Under the pieces are notes generated by a model, which ran no database searches, was not told the DNA's origin, and saw nothing but the letters and a program-made list of their open reading frames with translations. Positions 9,521 through 17,582 of a stretch of 64,000 nt of DNA are shown piece by piece. A program made the position numbers and the translations under genes. Each line of letters opens with the position of its first letter. Position 1 is the stretch's first letter. Origin of the DNA: Dehalococcoidales bacterium (GTDB taxonomy: Bacteria > Chloroflexota > Dehalococcoidia > Dehalococcoidales > Fen-1064); assembly GCA_020342155.1 (NCBI GenBank), contig CP070842.1:876034-940033 (forward strand), in the 5' to 3' direction.

Positions 9521-10711
9521 ATGACTAAAAACATAGCAATATCAGGTTTTGCCAAGCAAGGATTTAAAGCAGTGCAGGAAGCATTCATCAAGAATTTCGA
9601 GCGTTACCATGAGCTTGGAGCTGCCTGTTGTATCTACTACCGGGGTGAGAAAGTGGTCGACCTGTGGGGCGGCGTCCGTAACAAGGCGAAAAACGAACCC
9701 TGGGAAGAGAATACGATGGCTCTCGTCGCATCAACCACCAAGGGACTCGCCGGCCTATCAATGGCACTTGCTCACTCCCGCAAGTTATTTGATTACGACG
9801 AGCGTGTCTCGAAGTACTGGCCGGAGTTTGCACAGCAAGGGAAGGAAATGATTACAATACGACAACTACTTTCACACCAGGCTGGATTGTATGCATTGGA
9901 TGTGCTTCTGGACAAGAGTCTGGTTGCCAACCTTGACCAGCTGGCTGTTGTACTAGCGCAGCAGAAACCGGAATGGGAGCCGGGCACAAGACAAGCATAC
10001 CACGCCATCACACTTGGTTTCTACGAAAGCGAGTTGCTTCGTCGAGTCGATCCTGAACATCGCTCTCTAGGACAATTCTTCCAAGAGGAAATAGCTAGTC
10101 CACTGGGTCTTGATTTCTATATTGGGCTCCCTGAAGAGATTCCCAACGCCAGACTTGCAACACTTCATAGGGCTAATCTGGCAGGTGCGTTTTTCACCAT
10201 GCCTATCCCATTAGCGCTCTCGGCTATGAATCCGCGCTCACGGTTCCGCCGCTCGTTGTTGGGATCGTTGCCAGAAGAAAGAGATCATATCTACGCTCGA
10301 AATTTAGAGGTGCCGGCAGGAGGGGGTGTTGGAACCGCCCGCGCCATTGCTCAGGCGTATAGCGTATTCGCAACGGGCGGTCAAGAACTTGGTATACGTG
10401 AGGAAACACTACAACAGTTAATGGCATCTGCAGTTCCACCACTTCATGGATTCTATGATGAATGCCTGAAAGTAGAGATTGCTTTCTCACTTGGTTTCAT
10501 GAAACCAAGCCCTGAGAACACCTTCGGTCATCCAACCTCGTTTGGAGCCCCGGGAACAGGGGGGTCCTTTGGTTTTGCTGACCCCCATGCCAGGATTGGT
10601 TACGCGTACATCCCAAATCGGGTTCAATTCTACTTGACAGACCCAAGAGAAAAAGCCTTACGGACTGCAATGTATCATTCGGTTGGCGAGAAAGATCCAT
10701 ACCATGCTTAA
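9521..10711 (+). CDS. Serine hydrolase, beta-lactamase/esterase (class C / EstB-like) family
   Basis: The SxxK nucleophile motif is ASTTKGLAG. Length and overall layout fit the PF00144-type fold. SD is GGAGGAAGAGAGGAAGAA. Confidence 0.85.
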   Translation: MTKNIAISGFAKQGFKAVQEAFIKNFERYHELGAACCIYYRGEKVVDLWGGVRNKAKNEPWEENTMALVASTTKGLAGLSMALAHSRKLFDYDERVSKYWPEFAQQGKEMITIRQLLSHQAGLYALDVLLDKSLVANLDQLAVVLAQQKPEWEPGTRQAYHAITLGFYESELLRRVDPEHRSLGQFFQEEIASPLGLDFYIGLPEEIPNARLATLHRANLAGAFFTMPIPLALSAMNPRSRFRRSLLGSLPEERDHIYARNLEVPAGGGVGTARAIAQAYSVFATGGQELGIREETLQQLMASAVPPLHGFYDECLKVEIAFSLGFMKPSPENTFGHPTSFGAPGTGGSFGFADPHARIGYAYIPNRVQFYLTDPREKALRTAMYHSVGEKDPYHA

Positions 10712-10853
10712 GGAGAGTAACCCAACGATAGCAATTAGGTAAATTAGTCTTGGTAGCAACTACAGAGAGATTAAGAGATTACTTACTCACCTGCGGCATC
10801 ATCATTTTGCCGCTTCATGGTAGAATCGAATAATTGGAACGGAATACAGACAA

Positions 10854-10946
10854 ATGAAGAAGTGGCAAAAGATACTGATTATAGTACTCGGTCTTTCCAT
10901 TTTGCTTTTCGCCATTGGGTATATCTTCTGTGAAATCATTTTTTAA
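10854..10946 (+). CDS. Possible 30-aa hydrophobic micropeptide
   Basis: Hand-read ORF MKKWQKILIIVLGLSILLFAIGYIFCEIIF, below the track cutoff. TGGTAGAAT (extended -10-like) lies ~35 nt upstream. Speculative. Confidence 0.2.
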   Translation: MKKWQKILIIVLGLSILLFAIGYIFCEIIF

Positions 10947-11279
10947 TGTGACCTAACAAATATTGTCTGGGCTAACCTTGACATTACTCTGTTGTTCGCA
11001 ATCTCCTCATCAGGTCATACCAGCCTACAGCTCCTGAGAATATCATGACTGAGATAATTACTTAAAGGGTAGTATTTTTTATGGGAGCAGGTCGTATAGT
11101 CTCAGGAGGATGCAGAGATAGTAGTGCATACGTAAGAAGCCAATGCATAGAAAAGGAACATCTTCTTGAACAAACATCGGGATGACGATGTGGATGTGAA
11201 TATTAAAGACTTACACTTGTATCAAGTGTATCAAGGTCAATTGAAAAGGTATACATTCTGTACTAGAGTATGACGGTAA

Positions 11280-11609
11280 TTAGCAGGACCGCATAATCAG
11301 GACGGTTGAGACTATCGCCAGCGCGACCAGAAGTAATGCGATTAATGCCGCTCCCATAAATACATACCGTATTGGCAGGCGCAACTGTACCGTGTCTCTT
11401 GGCTTTGGGATCTTTGGAAGTTGTCTTTGCAGGGCCTCTCTAAGGGTGAGGTCTCCATTTATGGACTGGTCTTCCAGTCTTTCGTGCTCATCAATACGTC
11501 GTGAGGCAGTGTTTTCGACAGATGGGATATCCTTCTCCAGCCAGTATTCATAAAGTCTCTGGAATGTTCTTCTTGCCCCTCTTTTCCGCAGGTTATCGAG
11601 TATCTTCAT
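11280..11609 (-). CDS. Small tail-anchored membrane protein, unknown function
   Basis: 109 aa. The N-terminal part is soluble and charged. A single C-terminal TM is YVFMGAALIALLLVALAIVSTVLIM. It is divergent from the tubulin-like gene. Confidence 0.55.
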   Translation of the reverse strand: MKILDNLRKRGARRTFQRLYEYWLEKDIPSVENTASRRIDEHERLEDQSINGDLTLREALQRQLPKIPKPRDTVQLRLPIRYVFMGAALIALLLVALAIVSTVLIMRSC

Positions 11610-11775
11610 GTGGCATTTCCCCCCGGTAACGGAACTGTAGTTTCACTCAGTGTATCTAAGCCGACTGTTCCTGTCAATGCTTTATTGCGCTGGCAAAGAC
11701 TATGTATGAGGCTGGTTAACCGTGACTTCAATACTGGCTCACTAGTACTTTCGGGCTAATTTCTAGTATAAAGTA

Positions 11776-11804
11776 TTGACACCAGGTGTAGTTATGTATA
11801 GAAT
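11776..11804 (+). promoter_or_regulatory. Near-consensus sigma-70 promoter for the tubulin-like gene
   Basis: TTGACA (11776-11781), a 17-nt spacer, then TAGAAT (11799-11804). It lies ~58 nt upstream of the TTG start at 11863. Confidence 0.5.
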
Positions 11805-11862
11805 ACGCATATATAGTAAGTAAAGTGGAGCTGGTAAGATAAAGCCGGTAATGGAGTGACGT

Positions 11863-13038
11863 TTGAAATTACTGGTAATTGGTTGTGGGCAGTGCGGTGG
11901 TCGACTTGCTGATGAGTTCGCACGACGTGACAAAAGAGCACGCACAGATCGCGGCACTGAGATAGTTACAGAAGCCCTGGCTATCAACACGGATGTTGCG
12001 GATCTAAGCGGGCTGACCTTTATCAAACCCGACCACCGTCACCGGGTTCTCATCGGAGGTCGAAAGTCGGGTGGTCACGGTGTTGGCAAGATAAACGAAC
12101 TGGGCGCTGAGATAGCCAGGGAAGAAGGTGACCGGGTTTTAGATGGTGTAGCGCGGGCACAACAGCGCTCGGATACCGATGCCTTTTTAATGATTGCTGG
12201 TGCTGCCGGTGGCACTGGCTCCGGGGCGATTGCCGAGCTGGCGCAGCAGGTAAAGGAACGTTACGTAGACAAGCCGGTATATGCGCTTGTTGTTCTTCCT
12301 TTCCGCTACGAGGAGTTGACAGAGGATAGGTCTATCTACAATGTAGGGACATGCCTCAAGTCAATCTATCTGGTAGCGGATGCCGTATTTCTGGTGGATA
12401 ATCAGAGGTACGTCACGGACAAGGATTCCATCAGAAATAACCTGGCCCGGATTAATGCTCACGTGGTTGATCCGTTTTATAACTTGCTCTGTGCTGGCGA
12501 AGAAACGGACTCCAAGTTCATCGGCTCAAAGGTTCTGGATGCCGGCGATATAATTCAGACCCTATCAGGGTGGTCTGTTATCGGGCATGGTAGAGCATCG
12601 GTCTCACGAAGCAAACTCCCCTTCGGAGGGAAGTTGGATTTCAGGAATGCGGTTGCTGAAACCGACAAAGGAATTCATGCTATGAATCAGGCCAAGTCGG
12701 CTTTATCGCTGAAATGCCGACCTGACGATGCACGGCGAGCACTCTACCTCCTGACGGCACCTCATGAGCAAATGAGTATGGACCTGATAAGAGACCTGTC
12801 CTCATCCCTGAGAAGCATTGCCACCGATGCTACAATACGTAGTGGTGATTATCCCAGGGGGAAGGATTTTCTTGATGTTACCCTGGTACTATCTGAGCTG
12901 ACCAACTCGACGAAAATCTCGGATTACTTTAGCAGGACTCTCAGGTATATTTATCTTAAGAAGCGCAGGCGAGGAGAGATTGGAGAGCAGCAGGTCGGAT
13001 TTGACGAAGCCCTCCGTGATATCCCTCTGCTACTGTAA
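11863..13038 (+). CDS. Tubulin/FtsZ-superfamily GTPase, CetZ-like
   Basis: TTG start after GGAGTG. MKLLVIGCGQCGG is the T1 loop. GGHGVGKINELGAEIAREEGD matches my memory of the CetZ block KGHGVGxxNELGAEIAEED. MIAGAAGGTGSGA is the tubulin signature GGGTGSG. PVYALVVLP, FLVDNQ, VLDAGDIIQTL (T7-like acidic loop) and RSGDYP near the C-terminus also fit. The protein is collinear with haloarchaeal CetZ1 as I recall it. Confidence 0.8.
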   Translation: MKLLVIGCGQCGGRLADEFARRDKRARTDRGTEIVTEALAINTDVADLSGLTFIKPDHRHRVLIGGRKSGGHGVGKINELGAEIAREEGDRVLDGVARAQQRSDTDAFLMIAGAAGGTGSGAIAELAQQVKERYVDKPVYALVVLPFRYEELTEDRSIYNVGTCLKSIYLVADAVFLVDNQRYVTDKDSIRNNLARINAHVVDPFYNLLCAGEETDSKFIGSKVLDAGDIIQTLSGWSVIGHGRASVSRSKLPFGGKLDFRNAVAETDKGIHAMNQAKSALSLKCRPDDARRALYLLTAPHEQMSMDLIRDLSSSLRSIATDATIRSGDYPRGKDFLDVTLVLSELTNSTKISDYFSRTLRYIYLKKRRRGEIGEQQVGFDEALRDIPLLL

Positions 13039-13087
13039 GTTGCGTCTCCCCATCTGCCGGTGAACATTACCTCAGCCGAGCTGAGCG

Positions 13088-13564
13088 TTACTTGGCTACC
13101 TTCTCTCCCTGAAAGATACCCCAGGCTTCTTCTCGTGCATCAAGACATTTCGTCCAGGCCTGTTCTACGGTTGTCTTGTGGGCTTTCATGGCTTCTGCGG
13201 TACTCTTTTGATAGGCTACCTCAGCCCTCGCCAGCGCATCTCTGAATTCCTCTTCTGCTTGCTGTTCGGCCTGCTCCCGAGCTTTACGAGCCCTGTCCAG
13301 CGCCCTATCAAGAGCTTCGCTTGCCCGCTTCTCGGCCTCTCTATAGTCCTTCTCTAGCTGCTGTTCTTGCGTTTTATACCCGTTGGCTACCTCCTTCTGA
13401 GCCTGCCGGTACATTGTGTAGGCATTTTCTGCCTGGCTCAGAAGTTCTGCTAAATAGTTGCCGGCTTGCTCGGGAGAGCCTGCTTGTGGTTCGGCAGCCG
13501 TTTCTACAGCTTTTTCCTCAGCCTGTTTGGCAGCCTTCTCGGCTTGCCCCTTTTTGTTCATCAA
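13088..13564 (-). CDS. Coiled-coil protein (158 aa), unknown function
   Basis: Almost entirely A/E/K/Q/R-rich helical sequence, e.g. EKDYREAEKRASEALDRALDRARKAREQAEQQAEEEFRDALARAEVAY. It lies directly downstream of the repeat protein on the same strand, with an 81-bp gap. Confidence 0.65.
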   Translation of the reverse strand: MMNKKGQAEKAAKQAEEKAVETAAEPQAGSPEQAGNYLAELLSQAENAYTMYRQAQKEVANGYKTQEQQLEKDYREAEKRASEALDRALDRARKAREQAEQQAEEEFRDALARAEVAYQKSTAEAMKAHKTTVEQAWTKCLDAREEAWGIFQGEKVAK

Positions 13565-13645
13565 GAATACCCCCTCTATTTGTTGGTTTCCTTGTTATCC
13601 GTTTTTGCCAATAATACGCTTTTGTGAGTGACTGTTAAAGTGGTG

Positions 13646-15340
13646 CTAGTCTGTTTCGTCTTCCTCTTCTTCGGTTTCGTCGTCAGTCTGTCGTGTCTGG
13701 CCTGCTGCATACATTCTCGTAAGGGACTCCAGGCGGTCCTCGATATTAGCCTGCCTTCTACTCTTTTTCGATGTGGTTTTAGCAGCTTTACGTTCTGTCT
13801 TCTTGCTGGTGGCCTCAGAGACGTCGCCGACGTCTTCGAGGGCATCGCTAATCTCGTCGGCCTGGCTGTCAGAGGGTTGTTTTACCATCTCCAATTCTTC
13901 GGCGATATGGCTGACCTCCTGCCCAAGACTGACTGACTGTCCACCACGCCCCAGCAGCTTCTCGAATGCTCCTAACCATGCCTGGGCGGCTTCTTCGGCT
14001 CCCCTCTTGGATGCTTCGGTAGCTTCTCTGGCGGCTTGCAGAGATGCCTCGGCGGCTTTTTTAGCTGATTGACTTACTTCTTGTGCCCGACTGATAGCTT
14101 CCTGCGACGCTTGTGCCGATGTCTCAGCGGCCTCTCTAGCCGTTTCACTAGCTCTCCGGGCCATCTCCACGGACTCTTTCGACGCTGCCACCCACGAAGC
14201 AACTGTTTCAATGGCTGATTTGCTTATTTCCTCAACCTGTTTTATCGCGTCCTGTGATGCTCTTTTTGATTCCTCAACTGCTTCCCAGACTGATTTGCCC
14301 ATCTCCTCAGCCTTGCTTATCGCCTCCTGTGATACTCTTCGCGCCTCCTCGGCCGCTGTTTCGGCAACCTTGGAGGTTTCCGTAGCCTTGTCTATCGCTT
14401 CCTGCGAGGCTTGTCTGGACTCCTCAATGGCTGTTTCAGCAGTCCTGGTCATCTCTTCCGCCTTGCCCATCACTTCTTGGGACATCTTCTTTGATTCCTC
14501 AACGGTTGTCTCGGCAGCCCTGGTCATATCTTCCACCTTACTCATCACCTCCTGGGATGCCTTTGCCGATTCCTCAATGGCCGTCTCGACTGTTCTTGTC
14601 AGCTCTTCTGCCTTGTCTGTTGCCTGTTGAGACACCCTCTTTGATTCCTCGATTGCTTCCTCGGATGACCTGGTAGCACTTATTGCCTTCTCGAAGGCCC
14701 CGGTGTATGTCCTGGTCGCCTCCTCGGCTGATCTGGCGATGCTCTCAGCCTTACGCACCGCTTCCTGTGATGCCTGTACCGACGTCTCGACAGCCATCCG
14801 GGTTGTTCTACCTATGTCCTCGGCTCGGCCTACTGCTTCCTGAGAAGTGGCTACTGCCTGCTCGGCGGTCTCCAGGGCCATCTGAGCTGTTTTCTCTGCT
14901 TTTTCGCTAGCTTCTTGTGAAGTTTTTGTAGCTACCTCGGCGGCTTCTTTGGCCAGCCTGATTGCATCCTCTGCCCGGCTTATCGTCTTCTGTGACGTGT
15001 CTTTTGCCTCCTCAGCCGCATTTAGTGCTTTGCCAAAAGCCCTATTAGATGCGTCTAGCTCCTCTTTAGCTGCTTGGCTTGCTTCTTCTGCCTTGCTTAT
15101 TGCCTCCTGCGAGGCAAGCGATGCTACCTCAGCGGCTTCTTTGGCCTGCTGGCTGATCTCTTCAGCCCTGGCAATCATCTGCTGGGATATTTTTACTGAC
15201 TCCGCTGCAGCTTCCTTGGCCATTCGACCCAGCTTGTCGGCCTTGGCCACCACCTCCTCAAAGTCCCAGGTATCAGCAGGTGTGGGCGAGGGTTCGTCTA
15301 GTCGCTCGATTTCCGATGGCTCCATTTTCTTGCCTGTCAT
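13646..15340 (-). CDS. Large repeat coiled-coil protein (564 aa) with a basic segment and an acidic tail
   Basis: About 16 units of a 25-aa repeat (xxEESxxASQEAIxKAEExxxxAxx) span aa ~41-450. A basic stretch TSKKTERKAAKTTSKKSRRQ follows, then the acidic tail TDDETEEEEDETD. Confidence 0.75.
   Translation of the reverse strand: MTGKKMEPSEIERLDEPSPTPADTWDFEEVVAKADKLGRMAKEAAAESVKISQQMIARAEEISQQAKEAAEVASLASQEAISKAEEASQAAKEELDASNRAFGKALNAAEEAKDTSQKTISRAEDAIRLAKEAAEVATKTSQEASEKAEKTAQMALETAEQAVATSQEAVGRAEDIGRTTRMAVETSVQASQEAVRKAESIARSAEEATRTYTGAFEKAISATRSSEEAIEESKRVSQQATDKAEELTRTVETAIEESAKASQEVMSKVEDMTRAAETTVEESKKMSQEVMGKAEEMTRTAETAIEESRQASQEAIDKATETSKVAETAAEEARRVSQEAISKAEEMGKSVWEAVEESKRASQDAIKQVEEISKSAIETVASWVAASKESVEMARRASETAREAAETSAQASQEAISRAQEVSQSAKKAAEASLQAAREATEASKRGAEEAAQAWLGAFEKLLGRGGQSVSLGQEVSHIAEELEMVKQPSDSQADEISDALEDVGDVSEATSKKTERKAAKTTSKKSRRQANIEDRLESLTRMYAAGQTRQTDDETEEEEDETD
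13991..15220. repeat. Intragenic 75-bp tandem periodicity (25-aa repeat array)
   Basis: The plus-strand motif GAYTCCTCRA recurs at 14268, 14418, 14493, 14568 and 14643, in exact 75-bp phase. SQEA-type motifs occur at aa 52, 77, 141, 166, 191, 237, 262, 287, 312, 337, 362, 387 and 412. Confidence 0.7.
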
Positions 15341-15416
15341 CCTTTGCCTATTCTAAAACAGGCGGATTACTTTATCAATAGTTTTTTACAGGGTGTTTTA
15401 TCTGTGATAATGGTGC

Positions 15417-15425
15417 ATTATATCA
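15417..15425 (-). promoter_or_regulatory. Possible extended -10 element (TGATATAAT) for the coiled-coil operon
   Basis: The minus strand reads TGATATAAT ~77 nt upstream of the ATG at 15340. I saw no good -35. Confidence 0.25.
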
Positions 15426-15696
15426 CTCTTGCCCAGCGGAAGCCAGTTTATACAAACAAGCATTACGGTTCGGGATAATACTCACCGAACCCGCGTCTAG
15501 AGGGCATACTGCTGCCGATGTTTCACATTCGTAGGATTTACGCCTTACAGTATCTAAGTATCACTTAATAATATTGTATTTCACCAGTATGCGGAGTCAC
15601 ATCCACCAAAAGTACTAGTCTCTCTAGCCGATTAGTAACCTTTTTCGTTTGCACGCGCTGAAGGCAGTGGTTACAATTGTCTGTGGGAAATCTGTA

Positions 15697-17301
15697 ATGT
15701 CAGATATAAGCAAGTACCGGTTGATTTTAATGGCAGTCCTGGTGCCCATGACGGCAGTAGTCAGCGGGTTATACTGGGGTAGCTGGTGGAAAGAAGCATC
15801 AGCGCAGACAGATGGGACTTTGCAGTCGGATATTAGTAGTTTCATCTCCGAAAGAATGGCGGTTGAGAATATTCCCGGTGTGGCGGTGGTCGTTGTTCAG
15901 GACGCTAAGGTTATCTATCTGGAGGGATTCGGCACAGCCAGTCTCAAGGATCCGTCCCCGGTGACTCCCCAAACTGTGTTTGACTTGGCTTCGTGTAGTA
16001 AGTCATTCACCGCACTGGCGGTGCTTCTTCTTAGAGATGATGGACTGGTGGACCTGGACTTGCCTGTCAGCCACTATCTACCAGACTTCAAAACGGCTGA
16101 CCCTGAAACTGCTGAAGAGATTACGGTACGTTACCTGTTACATCATACGAGTGGTTTACCGGGAACGTTTGCCGAGCCTCTGGCCTTTCATTCGGGTGAT
16201 GATGCTATGGATAAGCTGGTGGCATCGCTGGACAGGGTACACCTGAATCGTGCTCCCGGGTTATTATTTGAATACAGTAATCTGAATTACAGCTTGCTTG
16301 GTGCTGTCATCGATGAAGTGTCCGGGGTCAGCTTTGAAGAATATCTGGAGCAGCGGGTCTTTGTCCCTCTGGGTATGATGCGTACCACTATGATTCCTAG
16401 CGAAGCTGATGTGATGGACAGGGCAGATGGTCACCAGCTCCTGTTCGGGCATGTTGTCACCAGAAATATTCCCGTCTATCGCAGTGTTGTCCCGGCAGGC
16501 TGGGTCATGTCTACCGCGGAGGATATGGGGAAGTGGCTCATCGTGCAACTGAGTGGTGGACGTATTGATGGTCGGCAGGTGGTACCATCGGAAACCATTA
16601 TGGAACTGCACACTCCAGGTGTGAGTTACGAGCAGAAGGGTGAGGAAGTTGGCTATGGTATGGGCTGGTTCATCGGTCTTTCTGATGCCGACTTGTCGCT
16701 CGTCTGGCACGGCGGGGATACGTCAAATTTCGCTGCCGACATGGTCATGGTACCTGAACATCAACTGGGAGTGGCTGTACTGGTGAACAGTCAGAATAGC
16801 TCTAGGGTGCATAGTCTTGCGCCTGATGTTGCCAGCCTGATTCTGGGGAAGGAATTGGTGCTGCCGACGGCTCCGTGGTGGGGCTCCTGGCGGAGTGCGG
16901 ACACTATGGCGATAGCTGCGGCAGCAACTTCCGTGGCGGCTTTCATTGCTTTGGTAGTTTACTTCTGGTGGCGTTGGCGGCGATTTCGCCTTTGGCGGAC
17001 TGCCTATCTGAGGACCATGCGCAGGAGAACGCTGAGGATATGGCGGATGGCACTGCCACTGACACCTCTGGTACTACTGGCAACCGCGGTGACCGCTATA
17101 TGGGTAGTTGTATGGTTGTTGTTTGGCTTTAACCTGTTCCGGGTGTTGATGCGGTTTGGCAGCTTTGCCCCTCCCGGTGTCTGGATTGCGGGGTGGATGA
17201 CTTTTGGCGTTATCAGTATATGGGCGCTCGCTCTGGCTGGTCAGACGCTCTTTCGGTACTGGATAAGACACAGGGTCCGAAGGTTGCGTTCTCAGAGCTG
17301 A
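15697..17301 (+). CDS. Beta-lactamase-fold serine hydrolase with N-terminal anchor and C-terminal polytopic membrane domain
   Basis: SxxK motif is ASCSKSFTALAV, with YSNLNY and HGGDT boxes. The C-terminal ~140 aa have 4 hydrophobic helices separated by W/R-rich linkers (WWRWRRFRLWRTAYLRTMRRRTLRIWRM). I preferred the ATG at 15697 over the TTG at 15649. Confidence 0.8.
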   Translation: MSDISKYRLILMAVLVPMTAVVSGLYWGSWWKEASAQTDGTLQSDISSFISERMAVENIPGVAVVVVQDAKVIYLEGFGTASLKDPSPVTPQTVFDLASCSKSFTALAVLLLRDDGLVDLDLPVSHYLPDFKTADPETAEEITVRYLLHHTSGLPGTFAEPLAFHSGDDAMDKLVASLDRVHLNRAPGLLFEYSNLNYSLLGAVIDEVSGVSFEEYLEQRVFVPLGMMRTTMIPSEADVMDRADGHQLLFGHVVTRNIPVYRSVVPAGWVMSTAEDMGKWLIVQLSGGRIDGRQVVPSETIMELHTPGVSYEQKGEEVGYGMGWFIGLSDADLSLVWHGGDTSNFAADMVMVPEHQLGVAVLVNSQNSSRVHSLAPDVASLILGKELVLPTAPWWGSWRSADTMAIAAAATSVAAFIALVVYFWWRWRRFRLWRTAYLRTMRRRTLRIWRMALPLTPLVLLATAVTAIWVVVWLLFGFNLFRVLMRFGSFAPPGVWIAGWMTFGVISIWALALAGQTLFRYWIRHRVRRLRSQS

Positions 17302-17329
17302 ACTACGCAGTTTGATATGGTAGAAGATA

Positions 17330-17403
17330 TGGGCGGTAGAGGACTTGAACCTCTGACCCCCTGCGTGTAAAGCAGGTGCTCTAACCAACTGAGCTAACCG
17401 CCC
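17330..17403 (-). tRNA. tRNA-Val (anticodon TAC)
   Basis: Folded by hand. Acceptor GGGCGGT/ACCGCCC, D stem GCTC/GAGC, anticodon stem CCTGC/GCAGG with loop TTTACAC, T arm AGAGG-TTCAAGT-CCTCT. CCA is not encoded. Confidence 0.9.
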
Positions 17404-17407
17404 ATAA

Positions 17408-17484
17408 TGGCGCGCTTGGCGGGGCTCGAACCCACGGCCTCAGCCTCCGCAGGGCTGCGCTCTATCCAACTGAGCTACAAGCGC
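17408..17484 (-). tRNA. tRNA-Arg (anticodon GCG)
   Basis: Acceptor GCGCTTG/CAAGCGC, D stem GCTC/GAGC, anticodon stem CAGCC/GGCTG with loop CTGCGGA, T arm GTGGG-TTCGAGC-CCCGC. The 3' GCCA is encoded. Confidence 0.88.
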
Positions 17485-17495
17485 TAAAATAAAAG

Positions 17496-17582
17496 TGGTG
17501 CCGAAGGTGAGATTTGAACTCACACGCCCTCAAAGGACACTACGCCCTGAACGTAGCGCGTCTGCCATTCCGCCACTTCGGC
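17496..17582 (-). tRNA. tRNA-Leu (anticodon CAG), long variable arm
   Basis: Acceptor GCCGAAG/CTTCGGC, anticodon stem CTACG/CGTAG with loop TTCAGGG, long variable arm, T arm GTGAG-TTCAAAT-CTCAC. ACCA is encoded. Confidence 0.9.

Follow-up and report, generated by a model that had tools for sequence, protein, structure and literature searches.

This analysis concerns a 64,000-nucleotide (nt) stretch of DNA from a Dehalococcoidales bacterium (GCA_020342155.1, CP070842.1, positions 876,034-940,033), referred to here as the window, and within it the locus at 11280-15340, for which an earlier note had proposed a cytoskeletal module consisting of a monocistronic gene for a tubulin homologue, a divergent gene for a tail-anchored membrane protein of 109 amino acids, and a convergent pair of genes for coiled-coil proteins of 158 and 564 amino acids. 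An open reading frame (ORF) check of the window confirmed all four ORFs in coordinates, strands and lengths, and the layout is as it had been described: the 109-amino acid gene is divergent from the tubulin-like gene and the 158/564 pair is convergent with it, so that the tubulin-like gene is monocistronic by layout. The proposed module itself survives in a narrower form, in which the tubulin homologue (TubA) and the two helical proteins (cc158 and cc564) are a conserved unit and the 109-amino acid protein and the neighboring hydrolases are not part of it. The four genes are:

11280-11609, minus strand: gene for the 109-amino acid protein, basic (isoelectric point, pI, of 10), with a single membrane segment at the C-terminus; its membership in the module is doubtful
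11863-13038, plus strand: gene for the CetZ-like GTPase of the tubulin/FtsZ superfamily (clade A, TubA), 391 amino acids, pI 8.2
13088-13564, minus strand: cc158 gene, encoding a 158-amino acid acidic helical protein
13646-15340, minus strand: cc564 gene, encoding a 564-amino acid acidic all-helical protein, pI 4.7

The identification of TubA as a tubulin homologue is borne out by matches above the cut-offs to Pfam Tubulin (PF00091; 97.8 bits against a cut-off of 33, 1.3e-27) and, over residues 188-356, to CetZ_C (PF21011; 62.2 bits against a cut-off of 21.6, 5.5e-17). Its start codon is TTG 11863, which has a GGAG ribosome-binding site about 5 nt 5' of it and is secured by the N-terminus MKLLVIGCGQCGG (MKLLVIG) being common to the 391-amino acid homologues. 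The T1 loop GCGQCGG occupies residues 7-13, the GGTGSG signature residues 116-121 (nt 12208-12225), and nt 12538-12549 encode the T7 loop DAGD; an alignment with 21 homologues shows no variation in the T1 loop, in GGTGSG or at the T7 residues D226 and D229. In a pairwise alignment, D226 aligns with D215 of H. volcanii CetZ1 and D229 with E218, which is the catalytic T7 residue of that protein (bioRxiv 10.1101/2024.04.08.588506). With a family profile, the best relative of TubA in the PDB is the same CetZ1 (4B46; 7.5e-54, query 1-365), followed by CetZ2 (4B45; 4.3e-36) and a methanogen CetZ (3ZID; 4.4e-20), and TubA is 34% identical to CetZ1 over 370 residues. Matches of FtsZ, tubulins, BtubB and TubZ to this profile are weak and partial, the best FtsZ structure reaching 6.6e-11 over the N-terminal domain only, and BtubB and the tubulins about 3e-6 over about 100 residues of the N-terminal domain, which falls short of a close similarity to alpha/beta-tubulin. 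TubA scores 49.3 bits on the FtsZ equivalog TIGR00065, N-terminal domain only, well below the cut-off of 295.2, while the true FtsZ of a relative (L015) scores 413.9 bits; it is also below the cut-off of Pfam Tubulin_2 (PF13809; 18.6 bits against 27). On the strength of its sequence, then, the 391-amino acid protein is a CetZ-family tubulin/FtsZ GTPase and not a canonical FtsZ. The closest database proteins, 64-97% identical and all of 388-392 amino acids, come from Dehalococcoidales, Chloroflexota or subsurface metagenomes and are named "tubulin/FtsZ family protein" or "Tubulin-like protein CetZ," and by NCBI also "cell division protein FtsZ." CetZ-like proteins have already been noted in Dehalococcoidia, where the sequences were placed in "CetZ-like" groups outside the supported canonical CetZ node (PMC9871819).

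The neighborhood of TubA is conserved on its downstream side. A scan with one genome per species gave 80 loci, nearly all from Dehalococcoidia metagenome-assembled genomes (MAGs), on which homologues of the neighbors were sought by tblastn and hidden Markov model iteration. With the window neighbors as tblastn queries, a cc158 homologue was found in 48 of the 80 loci and a cc564 homologue in 59, most of them directly 3' of the tubulin-like gene and on the opposite strand, as in the window. The tubulin-like ORFs of these loci (n = 112) form two orthologous clades according to the tree and the gene maps: clade A includes the gene of the window and has the helical pair next downstream, and clade B is found at the far side of cc564, divergent from it and 5' of dnaX-ybaB-recR. 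A frequent layout is gap, tubA (forward), cc158 and cc564 (both reverse), tubB (forward), dnaX, ybaB, recR, and paralogue B occurs in many genomes. The 64-kb window holds only one tubulin-like gene and neither gap nor dnaX was found in it, and the 80 loci include no second paralogue from MAGs of the window's closest relatives. When clade-A genes were classified blind to their neighbors, and only those with at least 2.5 kb of downstream DNA were counted, a cc gene was the immediate downstream neighbor in 47 of 54, which upholds the suspected co-occurrence of the coiled-coil genes with the tubulin-like gene across the 80 loci; four of the seven exceptions still have cc genes, either one gene further away or masked by crude ORF calling. 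The neighbors 5' of tubA vary between lineages, and tubA identity goes down to about 55% across clade-A loci (range 55-97%). In genomes that carry A and B on separate contigs, it is A that keeps the pair (L006 versus L050, L004 versus L074, L019 versus L079), and there is a variant (L089 5-1432) in which the tubulin-like gene and cc158 are co-directional, 183 bp apart, with no cc564 after them. Because the upstream flanks vary, the pair goes with A, and variants of this kind exist, the arrangement points to selection over an inherited gene order.

The cc158 family was also followed outside these loci. A profile search of 1.84 billion cluster representatives (50% identity) returned 176 proteins at E <= 1e-3, of which 71 reached E <= 1e-10 and most were 150-200 amino acids long, and a metagenome scan was made with a degenerate pattern from the cc158 alignment (at least 5 loci). 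With 176 representatives among 1.84 billion the family is small and not independently widespread, and the homologues with enough flanking sequence adjoin a tubulin-like gene (L084, L085, L087, L089), with one exception, P0135, that is considered below.

Several further observations were made on the tubulin-like genes of these loci. A third, divergent paralogue lies between gap and tubA in L041 (4720-5898) and L076 (1283-2458); its identity to clades A and B is about 39%, and its C-terminal end is KNLPTLD. The tubulin-like genes of L038 (PLLV01000041.1, with a Syntrophaceae label) and L046 (with a Chloroflexia label) nest inside the Dehalococcoidia clades, and these outside-class labels probably reflect mis-binning or loose labeling. 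A gene adjoining the tubulin-like genes in L051 (4441-4812) and L076 (6338-6709) encodes a 123-amino acid protein whose N-terminal part holds a zinc ribbon (CxxC...CxxC) and whose only membrane segment is C-terminal. Its two copies share 54% identity; they are unrelated to the 109-amino acid protein but are tail-anchored in the same way.

Neither cc158 nor cc564 matched any Pfam or NCBIfam family at E <= 0.01, which rules out the known FtsZ partner families, EzrA, ZapA, ZapB, SepF and DivIVA among them. The cc564 protein is 19% Ala and 17% Glu, and its N-terminal motif FEEVVAKADKL is followed by roughly a dozen or more 25-residue repeats (about nt 14012-15211) with the consensus A-x-E-E-S-x-x-x-S-Q-E-A-I-x-K-A-E-E and a lag-25 identity of 39%, and then by a linker. 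The C-terminus had been described as a basic stretch followed by an acidic tail, and this is confirmed: the basic stretch TSKKTERKAAKTTSKKSRRQAN (nt 13745-13810) and the acidic tail AAGQTRQTDDETEEEEDETD (nt 13649-13708) have IEDRLESLTRMY (nt 13709-13744) between them, and in this position 56 of 56 cc564 homologues carry the motif [IM]ExRL[ED]xL[AT][RK]M[YF]. Most homologues also have the N-terminal FExAVAxAExL in common, and lag 25 is the best in 50 of the 56, with lengths from 464 to 918 amino acids. The hydrophobic period of cc564 is 3.57 residues (25/7), with a power of 574 against 8.7 +/- 8.5 in shuffles and no signal at 3.5, and that of cc158 is 3.67 residues (11/3), with a power of 104 against 8 +/- 7. 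AlphaFold2 predicts for cc158 a disordered N-terminus and then a single 120-residue helix (residues 31-151; predicted local distance difference test score, pLDDT, of 86), and for cc564, in single-sequence mode, five long helices (pLDDT 64, a low to moderate confidence). The earlier label of coiled-coil proteins therefore needs a refinement: both are predicted as long helices without interruption, and neither is a heptad coiled coil. Full-length homologue searching with cc564 was swamped by low-complexity words (2 weak matches among 8000 candidates), and Foldseek against the PDB with the cc564 model gave nothing significant, the best E being 0.017 with a template modeling (TM) score below 0.3. 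Its top matches, long helices of axonemal doublet microtubules (TM 0.2-0.3), were read as generic long-helix similarity, and homology between cc158 and cc564 was not inferred, the iterated cc564 profile being promiscuous (102 matches, 44 of them common to cc158).

Homologue alignments of cc158 show an invariant segment, LLSQAENAYTMYRQAQKEVANGYKTQE, at nt 13364-13444. In the family as a whole it reads LLSQAENAYxMYxQAQxEVxxGYK, which is Tyr-rich with recurrent Ala-Tyr pairs and is invariant on all faces of the helix, and conservation on every face suggests a putative binding site rather than a simple coiled-coil core. Outside the window, at a distance of about 94 locus tags from the module, the source genome also encodes a 188-amino acid chimeric paralogue of cc158 (P0123; JSV77_04975, UCB43992.1), in which 64 residues are identical to residues 30-93 of the window cc158, including the invariant motif, and the rest is an unrelated Trp-rich C-terminus.

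The tubulin-like proteins of clade A have a median pI of 8.7, those of clade B are near neutral, and the median net charge is -33.5 for cc564 and -5 for cc158. A basic tubulin-like protein with acidic partners is the reverse of the pattern of acidic tubulin and basic microtubule-associated proteins (MAPs), so that, set against the MAP-like organization of which the large protein had been called reminiscent, the charge pattern is inverted. The complementary charges of TubA and its partners count in favor of the module proposed below.

TubA ends, behind a short basic linker, in DIPLLL (nt 13018-13035; RDIPLLL), where most homologues have KDIPSLL, and [DE][IV]Px[LFIM][LIVMF] is the C-terminal end of 101 of the 112 tubulin-like ORFs. 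The C-terminal peptide of FtsZ binds FtsA, ZipA and SepF, and the DIPxLL tail resembles this peptide, suggesting the hypothesis of a putative docking site for a membrane anchor. One gene order, that of a marine Dehalococcoidales MAG (L015 1811-7986), reads mraZ-rsmH-ftsA-ftsZ-cetZ-like (clade B)-nrdR and places the clade-B paralogue inside a remnant division cluster. The ftsZ of this locus (414 bits on TIGR00065) encodes the peptide ELDVPSFLRK near its C-terminus and adjoins the cetZ-like gene, and canonical FtsZ therefore coexists with a CetZ-like gene.

The closest comparators are the archaeal CetZ proteins CetZ1 and CetZ2 (4B46, 4B45), with which TubA shares the two-domain fold family (Tubulin plus CetZ_C), the full-length identity of 34%, the GTP loops, the T7 catalytic residue, and a short hydrophobic tail at the extreme C-terminus, and whose hosts, like those of TubA, have an S-layer and no peptidoglycan and also possess a canonical FtsZ. 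TubA differs in having a bacterial host, in being basic where CetZ is acidic, in a shorter M-loop without the long amphipathic protrusion of CetZ1, and in a tail of DIPxLL instead of LESLF. It is also tied to two helical families and often to a second paralogue, and no such linkage was found described for canonical CetZ proteins. Another comparator is the BtubA/BtubB and BtubC system of Prosthecobacter, likewise a foreign-looking tubulin-superfamily system in a bacterium, in which two paralogous subunits are encoded with a helical accessory that stabilizes the filament (PMC9871819). However, BtubA and BtubB are true tubulin relatives with a partial N-terminal match to TubA of about 3e-6, BtubC is a tetratricopeptide repeat protein, and the Btub genes form one co-directional operon, and the window carries one paralogue. 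In the case of FtsZ and its partners EzrA, ZapA/ZapB, SepF and FtsA, there is a similar combination of a globular GTPase, a linker and a short conserved C-terminal peptide (the docking peptide D-[IV]-P-x-[FL]-L in FtsZ, the similar DIPxLL tail in TubA) with long helical proteins that are encoded separately and are regulators in the case of FtsZ, though TubA fails the FtsZ model, canonical FtsZ coexists with the CetZ-like gene in L015, and cc564, unlike EzrA, has no membrane segment. Finally, Scy, FilP and crescentin are long acidic Ala/Glu-rich helical rods with long-period repeats that act in cytoskeletal scaffolding. By description, cc564 is like them in being a long acidic Ala/Glu-rich rod with non-heptad repeats; no sequence similarity to them was detected, the 25/7 repeat and the terminal motifs of cc564 appear to be specific to its family, and the gene for the cc564 rod is linked to one for a tubulin-like protein.

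The explanation that we favor, and hold to be somewhat probable, is that the block 11863-15340 is a conserved Dehalococcoidia cytoskeletal module in which the CetZ-family GTPase TubA works with cc158 and cc564 as dedicated partners. What we observed is that TubA belongs to the CetZ family, that the linkage is conserved, and that the proteins have the sequence and structural features given above; from this we infer polymerization, physical interaction, membrane attachment and a cellular role along the following lines. TubA, with its nucleotide-binding loops and both T7 acidic residues conserved, would polymerize with GTP into protofilaments, and its DIPxLL tail would dock the filament on a partner, most plausibly either a membrane anchor that FtsZ also uses (FtsA, for instance) or one of the helical proteins. 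The acidic cc564 rod and the short cc158 helix would bind the basic filament and might bundle, space or scaffold it under the membrane, with the length of cc564 varying through the number of its 25-residue repeats while its N- and C-terminal motifs stay constant. A likely role would be to shape the envelope or to aid division in cells that lack peptidoglycan and are covered by an S-layer, in parallel with haloarchaeal CetZ1. In its fullest form, which we offer as a tentative and rather doubtful extension, the proposal would be a CetZ-based cytoskeleton of the peptidoglycan-less Dehalococcoidia in which one or two basic paralogues polymerize under the membrane, are organized by two acidic non-heptad rods that represent new kinds of tubulin-associated protein, share the anchors of FtsZ through a mimic of its C-terminal peptide, and so set the disc shape and aid division.

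Two published findings on these organisms also speak for the proposal. Dehalococcoidales have neither the dcw cell-wall genes nor peptidoglycan and have retained mraZ-mraW-ftsA-ftsZ (PMC10608941). In D. mccartyi BTF08, the "FtsZ/tubulin GTPase" btf_0551, FtsZ, and the nearby hypothetical protein btf_0548 were more abundant, or were quantified only, in pure cultures, and co-culture cells were reported as barrel-like in contrast to the usual disc shape (PMC8163811). CetZ-like genes have been reported often to have neighbors of unknown function that contain coiled-coil regions, and the module itself was not described there (Santana-Molina et al., PMC9871819). Our literature searches found no description of a TubA-cc158-cc564 module and none of a dedicated CetZ partner, so that while the CetZ-like family in Dehalococcoidia is already known, the module as a conserved unit, both partner families and the pairing of paralogues appear to be undescribed. 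The peptidoglycan-less Dehalococcoidia include the disc-shaped bioremediation organism Dehalococcoides mccartyi, and bacterial CetZ-like sequences have so far been described in the literature only as "sparse" CetZ-like groups. To our knowledge, CetZ are the only tubulin-superfamily proteins tied to the control of cell shape in prokaryotes. A CetZ-like gene that is strongly conserved throughout a bacterial class and fixed beside two helical proteins provides candidate partners and a testable model of a bacterial tubulin-type cytoskeleton, and is relevant to archaeal-bacterial gene transfer in the tubulin superfamily.

A number of points count against the favored explanation. The partners are on the opposite strand and are therefore not co-transcribed with TubA, and with all 80 loci coming from one bacterial class the gene order could be partly inherited rather than selected. 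One sub-clade (L004-L010, L020, L024) has the cc564-like gene only, and a cc158-like protein of 187 amino acids, P0135, 44% identical, is encoded without a tubulin-like gene nearby (L081 6001-6564, L082, L083). The cc564 model reaches a pLDDT of only 64 and its fold search had no significant match. The DIPxLL tail also resembles the tail of CetZ1, LESLF, and as this functional hydrophobic tail may serve self-assembly and not the binding of an anchor, docking on an anchor through DIPxLL is put forward as a hypothesis. The gene for P0135 overlaps a PemK-family toxin gene at the start of the latter, where an antitoxin gene would be expected.

Three other explanations were weighed against the favored one, and in descending order of plausibility they are an accessory of the division ring, inherited synteny without function, and a TubZ-like segregation system. 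In the first of these, which we regard as possible but on the whole unlikely, the CetZ-like filaments would join the FtsZ/FtsA ring through their C-terminal peptide and the helical proteins would be cross-linkers or regulators in the manner of Zap proteins or EzrA. The likeness of the DIPxLL tail to the FtsZ peptide fits this reading, as do the L015 paralogue placed directly after ftsA-ftsZ, the abundance of the D. mccartyi CetZ-like protein, which changes together with that of FtsZ, and the position of clade B next to dnaX-ybaB-recR. However, L015 is a single case and concerns clade B rather than the clade A of the window, and neither cc158 nor cc564 is similar in sequence to ZapA, ZapB, EzrA or SepF. 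CetZ1 and CetZ2, the closest characterized relatives, act in shape and motility, not in division.

That the gene order is simply inherited, with helical proteins that are functionally unrelated to TubA and might be stress, late embryogenesis abundant (LEA), phasin-like or nucleoid proteins, seems to us improbable. It would be in keeping with loci that all belong to one class, with genes that are convergent and form no operon, with partners that have no recognizable domain, and with the 11/3 hydrophobic period, which is also found in helices that bind lipid surfaces; but the trio persists while both flanks are repeatedly exchanged, and also with tubB elsewhere, the cc158 family is essentially confined to a tubulin-like context, and the terminal motifs are invariant over tubA identities of 55-97%. 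A role like that of TubZ, with the filament moving chromosomes and the helical proteins as TubY-like adaptors, is very improbable indeed. TubZ has been proposed to descend from CetZ or from archaeal FtsZ (PMC9871819), TubA has the weak sub-threshold match to Tubulin_2 (18.6 bits versus 27), and the proximity of clade B to dnaX-ybaB-recR could be read in the same sense, but no TubR-like DNA-binding gene or centromere-like repeat adjoins the module, the loci are chromosomal with housekeeping genes at their flanks, and the strongly acidic partners argue against DNA binding; the lack of a DNA-binding partner and the acidity of the partner proteins together make DNA segregation unlikely.

The tubulin-like and cc158 genes are convergent with 49 bp between their stop codons, and the sequence around the module contains the following short features, the promoter-like sites being consensus matches only:

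11776-11804, plus strand: promoter-like site TTGACA-17-TAGAAT, 11 of 12 matches, about 58 nt 5' of the tubulin-like gene
13071-13085, no strand assigned: hairpin CTCAGC-cga-GCTGAG, read from the sequence, within the 49 bp that separate the two convergent stop codons
13611-13638, minus strand: promoter-like site matching at 10 of 12 positions, within the 81 bp that separate cc564 from cc158
15350-15378, minus strand: promoter-like site TTGATA-17-TAGAAT, 10 of 12 matches, directly 5' of the cc564 start codon

The site in the cc564-cc158 gap implies that cc158 may also have transcription of its own. The hairpin has no T-run and was not called in a terminator scan of the locus, and it may be an element of a bidirectional terminator.

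The genes on either side of the module have a much narrower distribution. The 109-amino acid protein, which matched no family in Pfam or NCBIfam, is tail-anchored as described, its sole hydrophobic segment, IRYVFMGAALIALLLVALAIVSTVLIMRSC, being at the extreme C-terminus, but its supposed co-occurrence with tubulin-like genes was found only in the closest relatives, L001, L002 and L085, of which L085 is apparently the same sequence as L001. The block is bounded, as the earlier note had it, by AT-rich DNA (42.1% GC at 10712-11862 versus 52.4% across the whole window) and by two beta-lactamase-fold genes (9521-10711; 15697-17301), both of which encode PF00144 proteins according to Pfam, the second with membrane segments at its C-terminus and with a start at 15697 that is also the start annotated by NCBI. 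The membrane-bound protein recurs in the same closest relatives only, and the soluble one gave a single weak partial match by tblastn, in L002. From this distribution, the 109-amino acid and beta-lactamase-fold genes are, as far as sequence comparison can tell, lineage-specific neighbors outside the module. The 109-amino acid protein was accordingly rejected as a membrane anchor, not being conserved beyond the closest relatives, and the envelope link that had been drawn through the beta-lactamase-fold proteins was rejected for the same lack of conservation.

The MAG from which the window derives has second copies of the 109-amino acid protein (identical) and of the membrane-bound beta-lactamase-fold protein (identical at 533 of 534 positions), and the proteins concerned (UCB43911.1, UCB43912.1 and UCB43915.1 versus UCB43032.1 and UCB43035.1; window 9521-17301) have equal accession spacing in both copies. 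The whole block, including the module, may thus be duplicated in the source contig or have been duplicated by the assembly. The TubA, cc158 and cc564 proteins of the source genome are absent from the protein collection. Just past the second beta-lactamase-fold gene, three tRNA genes, Val(TAC), Arg(GCG) and Leu(CAG), are clustered on the minus strand at window positions 17329-17582.

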